A DNA stretch of 11,112 nucleotides, filler included, from an uncultured Methanosarcinales archaeon (GTDB taxonomy: Archaea > Nanobdellota > Nanobdellia > Woesearchaeales > JAGLXL01), in the NCBI GenBank assembly GCA_964472345.1. It is 6 parts of 6 records of this genome, joined end to end, with 100 filler letters (N's around TTAATTAATTAA, not from the genome) between each part and the next. Parts side by side here need not be neighbours in the genome. Positions count along the whole stretch, not along the records: positions 6,032 to 7,777 come from CAYYLB010000117.1; 5 more parts are not named here. One strand, given 5' to 3'. The notes under the pieces are model-generated. The model was given only the letters and a program-made list of their open reading frames with translations, was not told where the DNA came from and searched no databases. The position numbers and the translations under genes are program-made. Shown one piece after another: positions 6,032 through 8,751 of this stretch. Numbering within the stretch: position 1 is the stretch's first letter; every line of letters begins with the position of its first letter.

Positions 6032-6034
6032 ACG

Positions 6035-6086
6035 AGCACAATCAGAACACACCAACCTAATGCCTATTTCAACGGGAATTTAGGAA
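6035..6086 (-). repeat. 52-bp contig-terminal repeat, copy 2
   Basis: Exact reverse complement of 3934-3985. Identity ends abruptly at 6087/3933. Confidence 0.9.
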
Positions 6087-6087
6087 A

Positions 6088-6579
6088 TTATGTATCAGGC
6101 GCCCACAACCCCCGGATAAGGCGGTACGCTTGCGGGACATTGGATTCCCATCCGTAACAATGCCGCTCTGAGCCGGGGAACATGACACTCGTCGAGACGA
6201 CTGCGCTGCCGCGGGCATCGAAGCCGATTCGGTGCGGCGGCTCTTTCTCTGAGAAATAGATATATAGGCAGCCGCGACTCTTGGCAGTGCATGCATACAC
6301 CGGAAGCTCAGCTTCTGAGGTAATCCTCTGAATGCCGGAGCGCGTGTGCTGCTTGGGTCCGCGTGGAATGTTTATCAATCCAAGCAGCCCTTCATCCATG
6401 AACGCCCGGAGCACATCCTCGAATGTCGGATAGCGCAACGGCTGGACGATCTCCGCATACCCTTCGTCCGGCGGCTCCTCAAAATCTTCCTTGTTCTTGA
6501 ACCCTTTCCGTTTGCGCAATTGCTCATAGTCAACCCGGGCGATATCCCGCAGCAGCAATGTCTTCCGGATGCCTGCCAT
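6088..6579 (-). CDS. Hypothetical protein, 163 aa
   Basis: Starts MAGIRKTLLLRDIARVDYEQL at ATG 6579. An AT-rich TATA-like TTTTTGAAA lies about 22-30 nt upstream on the minus strand. It is divergent from tRNA-Lys and shows no recognisable family. Confidence 0.6.
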   Translation of the reverse strand: MAGIRKTLLLRDIARVDYEQLRKRKGFKNKEDFEEPPDEGYAEIVQPLRYPTFEDVLRAFMDEGLLGLINIPRGPKQHTRSGIQRITSEAELPVYACTAKSRGCLYIYFSEKEPPHRIGFDARGSAVVSTSVMFPGSERHCYGWESNVPQAYRLIRGLWAPDT

Positions 6580-6625
6580 GAGAGCGCGTGAAAGAACCCA
6601 TTTCAAAAACTTTTCGCGCCTGCAG

Positions 6626-6641
6626 GCACAACATTTTTAAA
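6626..6641 (+). promoter_or_regulatory. BRE-TATA promoter of tRNA-Lys
   Basis: GCACAACA-TTTTTAAA ends 24 nt before tRNA position 1. Confidence 0.75.
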
Positions 6642-6665
6642 TTGCCTGCGCCATGCGCGCACCGT

Positions 6666-6795
6666 GGGCCCATAGCTCAGCCTGGTGCGTGCTGCTTTCG
6701 AGGAGCATGCGGGCAGTTAGAGCGGATGGCTCTTACATCAAGGAGAGACCATCAGGCCGGGGGTTCGAAAAACACCGAAAATCCCCCTGGGCCCG
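6666..6795 (+). tRNA. tRNA-Lys(CTT) with three introns (19/20: 6686-6716; 37/38: 6736-6747; 59/60: 6770-6781)
   Basis: Joining the exons gives the 75-nt cloverleaf GGGCCCATAGCTCAGCCTGG|TTAGAGCGGATGGCTCTTA|ACCATCAGGCCGGGGGTTCGAA|TCCCCCTGGGCCCG. Stems are GGGCCCA/TGGGCCC, GCTC/GAGC, GATGG/CCATC and GGGGG/CCCCC. Anticodon CTT is at 6732-6734 and the discriminator is G73. Each intron forms a BHB-type 4-bp helix with a 3-nt bulge. CCA is not encoded. Confidence 0.93.
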
Positions 6796-6815
6796 CTTCT
6801 TTCCCCAGAAAACGG

Positions 6816-7496
6816 CTAAATGGCCCCCCGCTCTCCCCTGACAAACAGCAGCTCCTTGCCTTCGAGCCGCCTGAGCTCTGAGCGGACGGCAAAGCCTGCG
6901 TGCTTCAGCAGCACCTTCAGCTCCGCTTCGCCGTACGAGTTCCGGTAATGCATCCGGTGCAGCTCCATCACCGGCGCAAGGCTCTGCACCATCACCAGCT
7001 GCCCCCCCGGCGCGAGCACGCGCTTCGCTTCCGCGAGCAGCTGCGGCAGGTTCGCGAGGTAATTCGCCACAAACACCATCGTCACGCTGTCAAAGACGCC
7101 GCTCGCGAGCGGCAAAGGCTTTTCGAGGTCGAGCGCTACCTTGTGCGGCGCATCGTGCACGAGCAGCATCTCTTCGGCGAAGTCAGCAGCGACAGAATTC
7201 CGCACATAGCTGGACGAGCCGGAACCAAGGTCAAGGTTCAGTCCCTGCAGGGACGACAGCTCGCGCGAAATCGCTTCCCGGACGGCGTGATCCACCCGGC
7301 TCTTCCAGCACACCGCTTCCGCGTTCCAGAACTGCTGCGCATGCTGCGGCCACTGCGCGTACGGCGGCAACTGGCACGCGTACTGCTGCGCCTCCCGGAC
7401 AAGCCGCCGGAAGCGCTCACCCTTGGCGTAGTTCAGGCCGAGCAGCGTCTCAAAGAACGCCCCTTCGAGCCGCAGCCGGTCACCCTCTTTTGGCAT
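6816..7496 (-). CDS. Class I SAM-dependent methyltransferase (Methyltransf_11-like)
   Basis: Motif I LNLDLGSGS, then VAADFAEEML, LPLASGVFDSVTMVF and EAKRVLAPGGQLVM. Minus-strand TATTTATA at 7519-7526 gives a leaderless spacing. Confidence 0.88.
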   Translation of the reverse strand: MPKEGDRLRLEGAFFETLLGLNYAKGERFRRLVREAQQYACQLPPYAQWPQHAQQFWNAEAVCWKSRVDHAVREAISRELSSLQGLNLDLGSGSSSYVRNSVAADFAEEMLLVHDAPHKVALDLEKPLPLASGVFDSVTMVFVANYLANLPQLLAEAKRVLAPGGQLVMVQSLAPVMELHRMHYRNSYGEAELKVLLKHAGFAVRSELRRLEGKELLFVRGERGAI

Positions 7497-7580
7497 GGCA
7501 GCAGCAACGCATGCGCCCTATAAATAGGTTGCGGGCGGTGAACAGCAAAAAAGGGGCGGGCGGCTTTTCACCGAACGGCT

Positions 7581-7596
7581 GCACAATGTTTTTAAA
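7581..7596 (+). promoter_or_regulatory. BRE-TATA promoter of tRNA-Val
   Basis: GCACAATG-TTTTTAAA ends 24 nt before tRNA position 1, the same spacing as for tRNA-Lys. Confidence 0.75.
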
Positions 7597-7620
7597 CCGG
7601 CCGCTGCTCTGCCGCGCCGT

Positions 7621-7765
7621 GGGCCCGTGGTCTAGCGGCTATGACATCTCGTTGACGGGCGTCCCTCTGCTGACTGCAGCGGCGGCGCGCGAAATCGAGA
7701 AGGTCCCCAGTTCGAATGGGCAGGGCTGAACAGGAAGCGCTGCCACGGCAGTCTGGGCGGGCCCA
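7621..7765 (+). tRNA. tRNA-Val(GAC) with two introns (37/38: 7658-7694; 59/60: 7717-7751)
   Basis: Joining the exons gives the 73-nt GGGCCCGTGGTCTAGCGGCTATGACATCTCGTTGACG|TCGAGAAGGTCCCCAGTTCGAA|TCTGGGCGGGCCCA. Stems are GGGCCCG/CGGGCCC, TCTCG/CGAGA and CCCAG/CTGGG. Anticodon GAC is at 7654-7656 and the discriminator is A73. Both introns fold as hairpins with relaxed BHB motifs. A T-run follows the gene. Confidence 0.9.
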
Positions 7766-7777
7766 TGTTTTTCCAAG

Positions 7778-8267: not shown

Positions 8268-8751
8268 GGAGCAGGCGGCGCACATCTTCGCCCTGCGGAC
8301 GACGGCGAACCGCGAAGACCAGGTCATGGATTTTGTGAGCTCGAAGATCCGCAAAGATGCGTGCGAGGTGTATGCAGCGGTCCGGGCGCACGGCATGAGG
8401 GGGTACATCTTCCTCGAGGCGAAGGCGCGCACGGATGCGGATCAGGCCATCGGGCGCATCCCCTATGCGCGCGGCATCCTGCCGCAGGAGATCGCCTATG
8501 AAGAGATCGACCACATGCTCGAGCAGGTGAGGATTGAGCGCAACATCCACAAGAGCGACATCGTCGAGATCATCTCCGGCCCGTTCAAGCGCGAGCAGGC
8601 GAAGGTGATGCGCGTCGACAAGACAAAAGACGAGGTCGTCGTCGAGCTGCTGCAGGCAGCGGTTCCGATTCCCATCACCGTGAAGATGGATGCGGTGAAA
8701 GTGATCCGCCGCGAGCGCGCCGGCGAGGGAGAGAAAACGGCCGAAGAATAG
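8260..8751 (+). CDS. spt5: Transcription elongation factor Spt5 (NusG)
   Basis: NGN domain (IFALRTTANREDQV...MRGYIFLEA) plus KOW motif (DIVEIISGPFKREQAKVMRVDKTKDEVVVELL...IPITV). Confidence 0.96.
   Translation: MAEEQAAHIFALRTTANREDQVMDFVSSKIRKDACEVYAAVRAHGMRGYIFLEAKARTDADQAIGRIPYARGILPQEIAYEEIDHMLEQVRIERNIHKSDIVEIISGPFKREQAKVMRVDKTKDEVVVELLQAAVPIPITVKMDAVKVIRRERAGEGEKTAEE

Follow-up and report, generated by a model that had tools for sequence, protein, structure and literature searches.

A lysine tRNA gene with three predicted introns in a Woesearchaeota-like archaeon from groundwater

The locus and its predicted introns

We have analyzed a stretch of DNA of 11,112 bases (the window from here on) made of six short contigs (C113, C114, C115, C117, C119 and C120) joined by runs of 100 N, so features are not to be read across the N runs. 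The assembly to which they belong has a size of 1.26 Mb in 120 contigs, with 57% G+C, and is 100% complete and 0.31% contaminated according to CheckM. The contig ends found in the window show exact overlaps of 55 bases with other contigs, i.e., they are unresolved joints of the assembly graph. Judging from its sequence, the host is a Woesearchaeota-like DPANN archaeon from groundwater, a name that we use because its splicing enzyme EndA is 67–77% identical to homologues in MAGs of Woesearchaeota or Nanoarchaeota. It is neither a member of the Thermoproteales nor an ARMAN archaeon.

The gene studied here, a tRNA-Lys(CTT), is located at positions 6666–6795 of the plus strand, on a contig of 1.7 kb (C117, positions 6032–7777 of the window) that is present in four groundwater metagenome runs, all from one study. 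It sits inside a gap of 209 nt with ORFs of the minus strand on both sides, one at 6088–6606 with no match in Pfam and one at 6816–7496 that codes for a methyltransferase. An A/T-rich, TATA-like box (TTTTTAAATT, 6634–6643, plus strand) lies 23–32 nt upstream of the 5' end of the tRNA and, as read from the sequence, would be a putative archaeal promoter. A similar box is found ca. 30 nt upstream in most of the tRNA loci of the relatives, according to our own reading of the printed segments.

The gene is composed of four exons of 20, 19, 22 and 14 nt and three introns of 31, 12 and 12 nt, all on the plus strand. Exon 1 (6666–6685, 20 nt) contains the 5' strand of the acceptor stem, positions 8 and 9, the 5' strand of the D stem and the D-loop as far as G19. 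It is followed by intron 1 (6686–6716, 31 nt), inserted in the D-loop at site 19/20. Exon 2 (6717–6735, 19 nt) provides the remainder of the D-loop, the 3' strand of the D stem, position 26, the 5' strand of the anticodon stem and the anticodon loop to A37, with the anticodon CTT. Intron 2 (6736–6747, 12 nt) occupies the canonical site 37/38, and exon 3 (6748–6769, 22 nt) goes from A38 through the 3' strand of the anticodon stem, the variable loop and the 5' strand of the T stem to A59 of the T-loop. There, at site 59/60, intron 3 (6770–6781, 12 nt) is found, and exon 4 (6782–6795, 14 nt) completes the molecule with U60, the 3' strands of the T and acceptor stems and the discriminator G, the CCA being not encoded. 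This arrangement, with introns at 19/20, 37/38 and 59/60, had been proposed in the preliminary description of the locus, whose coordinates and lengths proved to be exact.

When spliced in silico, the exons give a 75-mer that ARAGORN recognizes as tRNA-Lys(ctt), a cloverleaf without mismatches and with G as discriminator. Its acceptor stem has 7 bp, the D stem 4 bp and the anticodon and T stems 5 bp each, and all 21 pairs are intact. The conserved features are also present: U8, A14, the GG of the D-loop, U33 and TTCGAAT in the T-loop. The ARAGORN cloverleaf, the BHB rule described below and a spliced alignment bear out the previous assignment as tRNA-Lys(CTT), and also the claim that cutting after the second nucleotide of each bulge leads to a canonical tRNA. 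The unspliced locus, on the other hand, received no call from ARAGORN, with or without the -i option, nor from Rfam at the gathering score or at E <= 10; two weak Rfam rows (HOTAIR_3 and tpke11) are attributable to chance. Being cut into four short pieces, the gene is missed by the common tRNA finders, and the earlier suspicion that standard annotation would overlook it is true for ARAGORN and for the Rfam tRNA model. Two other kinds of interrupted gene were considered and rejected. The inserts, of only 12–31 nt, are not self-splicing group I or II introns, and no Rfam intron family was detected at the gathering score or at E <= 10. Neither is this a split or permuted tRNA gene, the four exons being colinear, on one strand and within 130 nt.

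To describe the splice motifs we used a BHB rule in which a strand of 4 nt whose end lies 2 nt ahead of the 5' cut pairs with another, also of 4 nt, whose end lies 2 nt ahead of the 3' cut, the outer helix being on the exon side and the inner helix inside the intron. All three introns pass this rule, as pairing potential. In intron 1, an HBh' motif, the four central pairs of GCCT/GGGC form (one of them G-U), with an outer run of 1 and an inner run of 7, and the bulges are GG^T and AG^T. The inner run is the hairpin GCGTGCT/AGCATGC, with 7 bp, one of them G-U. On the exon side there is a single A-U pair, then a mismatch and then the D stem. The two 12-nt introns are of the hBH-loop type. Intron 2 has the central helix CTCT/GGAG, an outer run of 5 that corresponds to the anticodon stem and the 3' bulge AG^A, while intron 3 has TTCG/CGAA, an outer run of 5 that is the T stem and the 3' bulge AA^T. 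In both, the inner run is 0 and the 5' cut falls within a loop of 8 nt, with no inner helix. None of the three introns reaches the strict hBHBh' form, which requires 2 bp or more in the helix at each side of the core. The D-loop intron had been presented as a full BHB, and the helix GCCT/GGGC, the pairs of the hairpin and the bulges GG^T and AG^T were indeed found, but since its exon-side helix has only one A-U pair the motif is a relaxed HBh' instead of a full hBHBh'. Besides, the stem GCGTGCT/AGCATGC, which had been taken for the outer one, is the helix h' internal to the intron. We also considered that intron 1 might be a repeated mobile hairpin, an idea that was discarded, as blastn-short found no second copy in the genome, with a longest match of 13–15 nt.

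Folded without constraints, the precursor of 130 nt has an MFE of -63.4 kcal/mol (z = -4.79), a value reached by 0 of 200 shuffled sequences. In this structure the cloverleaf has its four stems and intron 3 shows precisely its motif, and introns 1 and 2 are displaced by 2 nt from the splice register. The register in which all the BHB motifs form has -54.8 kcal/mol, i.e., it is 8.6 kcal/mol less stable than the MFE, and we have counted this against the explanation that we favor. Motif and tRNA calls must be read with care. Taken by itself, the BHB rule discriminates poorly, with 44 candidates in a region of 289 nt (ca. 0.09 per nt). ARAGORN, for its part, still saw a tRNA after 988 of 20,000 triple deletions placed at random within the gene, and in all of the 343 variants in which the boundaries had been moved by up to 3 nt, a tolerance that prevents it from settling where exactly the cuts lie. 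Both tools being so permissive, the decisive evidence is comparative. The weight rests on the colinearity with an intron-free orthologue, on the conservation of the exons with their compensatory changes and on the fold of the precursor.

Orthologues, intron turnover and copy number

A DNA search of 40 relatives plus the genome itself gave matches in 16 of the 41 genomes. We compared the spliced product with ten orthologous Lys(CTT) loci and with its own locus (n = 11) by a spliced alignment that makes no use of motifs, adopted after the screen based on the removal of BHB-bounded stretches had picked wrong solutions for three of the loci (L003, L006 and L009). The same three insertions were recovered at the locus of the window. 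One of the orthologues (L006, genome G037) is free of introns, colinear with the spliced product, and scores 70 bits on the Rfam tRNA model. Each of the other nine has one or two insertions, mostly at 19/20, 37/38 and 59/60; L014 has one near position 42–45. Over the 11 loci, insertions are found in the D-loop of four, the anticodon loop of seven and the T-loop of eight, with one locus having none, and only the gene of the window has all three together.

The mature parts of the orthologues are 79–91% identical to the gene of the window. Standard pairs occupy 226 of the 231 stem cells of the 11 loci, the five exceptions being read as gap placements in the alignment. Covariation was detected in six of the 21 stem pairs, which have changed on both sides, including pairs whose strands are located in different exons. 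The D-loop intron appears at the same place in L002, L003 and L009 with its central helix kept, including one change from U-G to U-A: in L003 it is AGGC that stands opposite GCCT, versus GGGC in the others. In the same way, the T-loop of L005 has TTCA pairing with TGAA of the intron, a compensatory change. According to our own reading of the intron ends, a perfect 4-bp helix is found in six of the eight T-loop introns, including that of the window; three of the four pairs form in L014, and L015 cannot be fitted to the same register.

Two further observations were made in the relatives. In L013 (G016) and L014 (G007), extra copies of the 3' exon, with the 3' strands of the T and acceptor stems, appear once or twice ca. 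100–150 nt downstream of Lys(CTT), and the extra copy in L014 is preceded by an intron-like end, ...GAAAA. Alternative 3' exons are one possible reading of them, leftovers of a duplication or of intron gain another. The 5' exon sequence of the Lys(CTT) genes also heads other tRNAs in relatives (L004 of G010, L007, L011, L016 and L008). Such tRNAs include Ile(TAT) with long introns in the anticodon loop and the T-loop and Ile(GAT) without introns, and also, in L004, a further tRNA whose D-loop intron ends in the same ...GCGGGCAA as the Lys genes.

Whether the genome has another gene for Lys(CTT), a question raised in the preliminary description, was examined by four approaches and none was found. 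The 17 calls of ARAGORN with -i and the 20 Rfam matches over the whole genome include no Lys(CTT). A genome-wide screen, in which one to three stretches bounded by BHB motifs were removed before running ARAGORN again (1,580,976 variants, 455 calls, 50 clusters), gave Lys(ctt) on C117 only. This screen is noisy and incomplete, with 15 of the 50 clusters at a quality score of 70 or higher, many of the low-scoring calls being false, and it misses introns that break the rule, such as the T-loop insert of the neighboring tRNA-Val. It was run on the whole genome without masking of ORFs, as the spurious ORFs of a genome with 57% GC cover known tRNAs. With blastn-short, the genome contains no further match to the tRNA-Lys gene longer than 16 nt. 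Finally, a spliced DP scan of both strands with the Lys(CTT) tRNAs of two relatives scored 93 and 72 at the locus of the window, the next distinct loci reaching at most 68 and six reversed-query nulls 58–67. We found no other candidate, and 6666–6795 would be the single Lys(CUU) gene of the genome as assembled; the assembly being fragmented (120 contigs), an additional copy could have been left unassembled. A gene for tRNA-Lys(ttt) was found on contig C27.

Splicing enzymes and the tRNA genes of the genome and the order

One EndA gene was found in the genome (G000:C2:253-786, minus strand), coding for an alpha-type protein of 177 aa that matches PF02778 and PF01974. No second EndA-like gene or beta subunit was detected in the genome at E <= 10 with either the Pfam model or the EndA protein itself as query. 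The titles of the close relatives of this EndA (the homologues with 67–77% identity mentioned above) are Candidatus Woesearchaeota, Nanoarchaeota or Nanoarchaeia, some being labelled otherwise. Among solved structures the best match is the catalytic alpha subunit of Nanoarchaeum equitans (3iey_A, E = 1.8e-38), followed by the subunit of the M. jannaschii homotetramer. Compared with N. equitans, 6 residues are missing from the loop between the aligned Tyr and the catalytic His, a loop that shows no gap versus M. jannaschii; the C-terminus, ...AWKRP, resembles the ...SWKKP of N. equitans. In the portion of PMC3488258 used here, the loop and the C-terminal Trp of N. equitans are discussed as RNA-recognition features. 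The same portion ties relaxed motifs at non-canonical sites to the (alpha-beta)2 and epsilon2 enzymes, strict hBHBh' being the substrate class of the euryarchaeal alpha4 and alpha'2 enzymes, and gives, as the older view, that alpha4-type enzymes do not cut relaxed motifs. Among 41 genomes of the order, the catalytic domain had exactly one match in 38, two in G008 and none in two incomplete genomes. The ligase RtcB was found on contig C6 (478.5 bits) in one open frame of 994 codons (G000:C6:6347-9169, plus strand; loci L018 and L019). The Pfam match of RtcB comes in two pieces (1–55 and 49–426 of the model) ca. 1.5 kb apart, which looks like an insertion of intein size.

Most tRNA genes of this genome appear to be interrupted. 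Only 12 Rfam tRNA matches pass the cut-off despite a CheckM completeness of 100%, and spliced searches recover many more genes with interruptions, so the genome fits the earlier proposal that the 'missing' tRNAs of reduced genomes are hidden by introns. In the motif-based screens, the 15 spliced genes with the highest scores contain 20 introns, half of them (10) in the T-loop. Like in the case of the orthologues, we also carried out a motif-free scan, with 54 tRNAs of two relatives, in which 34 loci were aligned, at least 16 of them with an insertion in the T-loop. The same alignment gave three insertions in tRNA-Val(CAC), on the minus strand of contig C35 and ending at 6169 (G000:C35), in the D-loop, the anticodon loop and the T-loop, and three in tRNA-Arg(TCT), on the minus strand of contig C49 and ending at 8321 (G000:C49), after positions 25, 39 and 61. 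In this genome there are thus other candidates for three introns besides the Lys gene. These inventories come from our own heuristics and are incomplete, with no clear structure obtained for the loci of Pro(CGG), Ser(TGA), Glu(TTC) and Thr(GGT), on C64, C12, C44 and C101, respectively.

The window itself contains another interrupted gene, a tRNA-Val(GAC) at 7621–7766 of the plus strand, at the end of C117, with inserts after positions 37 (37 nt) and 59 (35 nt) and a spliced DP score of 100. Its T-loop insert does not fit the BHB rule. The first 37–38 nt of this tRNA (7620–7657) are common to many metagenome contigs at high depth, which diverge exactly after position 37, and the region 7701–7770 of the window shares 95.7% identity with a portion of the Val(CAC) locus of C35.

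At the level of the order, the number of Rfam tRNA matches per genome (E <= 1e-4) goes from 8 to 41 over 41 Woesearchaeales genomes, with 14 or fewer in 16 of the 41. Low numbers are found also in closed or nearly closed genomes, such as G024 (1 contig, 13 matches) and G004 (4 contigs, 12 matches). This suggests that the interruption of tRNA genes differs greatly between Woesearchaeales families.

Explanations, known systems and significance

The explanation that we consider very probable, on the sequence evidence gathered here, is that 6666–6795 of the plus strand is a single Lys(CUU) tRNA gene with three BHB introns spliced by proteins in a Woesearchaeota-like DPANN archaeon. Transcription would start from the upstream TATA-like box and yield a precursor of ca. 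130 nt with the four stems of the cloverleaf already formed. Each insert would then present a helix of 4 bp with a cut site on either side. The 3' site would be in a bulge of 3 nt, and the 5' site in a 3-nt bulge in the case of the D-loop intron and in an 8-nt loop in both 12-nt introns. The single alpha-type EndA would cleave at the six sites, in each case behind the second nucleotide of the bulge, and RtcB would join the exons of 20, 19, 22 and 14 nt into the tRNA of 75 nt, the CCA being added later. Transcription, cleavage by the 177-aa EndA, ligation and function in translation are all steps that we infer. Against this explanation we also count the relaxed form of the three motifs, since the older literature denies such substrates to alpha4-type enzymes (PMC3488258) and the only EndA found is of alpha size, with a shorter loop around the catalytic His than in N. 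equitans.

The locus might instead be a decaying tRNA-Lys pseudogene with three insertions, the codon AAG being served either by tRNA-Lys(UUU) and no other, or by a gene for Lys(CUU) that was left unassembled. The 120 contigs of the assembly and the location of the gene on one of only 1.7 kb leave room for such a second copy, and the tRNA-Lys(ttt) gene of C27 is indeed there. However, a pseudogene is hard to reconcile with the intact state of 21 out of 21 stem pairs in the spliced product, with exons that keep 79–91% identity to the orthologues through compensatory changes, or with a splice motif in each insertion that is in register with the canonical mature sequence. The orthologues of relatives carry introns at the same sites, the TATA-like box is in place at -23 to -32 and CheckM gives 100% completeness, and we regard decay as very unlikely. 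Still less to be expected, in our opinion, is that EndA cuts only some of the inserts, the one in the D-loop or in the T-loop being kept or otherwise removed, or that splicing follows a fixed order. The motifs are relaxed, the MFE prefers the shifted registers for introns 1 and 2, and the sole EndA found is a minimal alpha-type enzyme, all of which speak for partial removal. Nevertheless, 12–31 nt kept in the D-loop or the T-loop would break the tertiary contacts between both loops. T-loop insertions are so frequent, in at least 16 of the 34 loci of this genome and in 8 of the 11 Lys(CTT) loci, that the lineage must process such insertions routinely, and the three motifs, being local and non-overlapping, impose no order of splicing.

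That the insertions are an artefact of the assembly or a chimera of reads from several strains, the real gene having fewer introns, can be practically dismissed. The contigs are short, with end overlaps of 55 bases, and those of the metagenome runs X2 and X3 break inside or beside the gene, which speaks for an artefact. But a contig of X4 (6607–7657) and another of X1, possibly the source sample (6085–7657), both cover the whole gene with 0 differences, and one of X3 does so over 6678–7055, also with 0 differences. No contig that joins across any of the three introns was found in the runs X1–X4.

The layout of the gene is not new for archaea, and it is frequent both in this genome and among its relatives. 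There is prior evidence of archaeal tRNA genes with up to three introns, Pyrobaculum calidifontis being the extreme in the part of PMC8450103 consulted. The multiple-intron tRNA genes of the Thermoproteales (Pyrobaculum, Thermofilum and Caldivirga) appear in the sections seen of PMC8450103 and PMC5829648, which cite Sugahara et al. (2008). As far as those sections go, the gene described here resembles them in having short exons that simple tRNA finders overlook, but it differs in belonging to a DPANN host and not to a crenarchaeote. In place of the (alpha-beta)2 heterotetramer with a Crenarchaea-specific loop there is a single alpha-type EndA of 177 aa. The introns differ too, being very short (12 nt) and returning at a small number of sites, namely 19/20, 37/38 and 59/60.

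Within DPANN, the portion available of Kaneta et al. (2018; PMC5829648) reports more tRNA disruption, including multiple introns, in lineages with alpha4-type EndA, together with incomplete predicted tRNA sets, and includes tRNA predictions for one Woesearchaeota genome. That portion links the broad specificity of DPANN EndA to an 'L3' loop, whereas in our EndA this loop is the one shorter than that of N. equitans by 6 residues. The text of PMC5829648 used for the comparison describes no specific Woesearchaeota gene structures. In the open-access literature we found no detailed description of the tRNA gene structures of Woesearchaeota and, for DPANN, only PMC5829648; an Asgard preprint (10.64898/2026.10.13.758758) has no mention of DPANN or Woesearchaeota. 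ARMAN-1 and ARMAN-2 (Micrarchaeota) are likewise ultrasmall DPANN archaea with relaxed BHB introns at non-canonical sites, according to the excerpts used of PMC3239211 and PMC3488258. Their epsilon2 EndA, as presented in the excerpts of the latter, is a three-unit protein of ca. 390 aa with an ASL loop, in contrast to the single-unit enzyme of 177 aa found here. The split and permuted tRNA genes of Nanoarchaeum equitans and Caldivirga share the same BHB-based logic of processing, in what could be consulted of PMC3218864, but in our case there is one gene with cis-introns and not halves that are spliced in trans.

The gene is an example of how a small archaeal genome that looks complete can seem to be without most of its tRNAs. 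Intron-aware tRNA detection is needed for DPANN annotation pipelines, for studies of codon usage and for arguments based on 'missing tRNAs'. The relaxed introns and the single minimal EndA, besides, form a concrete pair of substrate and enzyme that bears on EndA specificity. This specificity, and the age of the recurrent introns at 19/20 and 59/60, are more interesting than the gene itself. As a tentative proposal, more doubtful than not, the pattern might extend to the Woesearchaeales as a whole: a heavily interrupted set of tRNAs would coexist with one minimal alpha-type EndA devoid of the CSL, the ASL and the N. equitans loop, and relaxed hBH-loop introns would be met again and again at a small number of fixed sites, chiefly 59/60 in the T-loop and 19/20 in the D-loop. 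If this were true, there would be a further, undescribed way for an EndA of homotetramer size to accept relaxed substrates, and some introns, e.g., the D-loop intron common to the Lys(CTT) genes of several families, would be old and conserved in position, not recent random gains.
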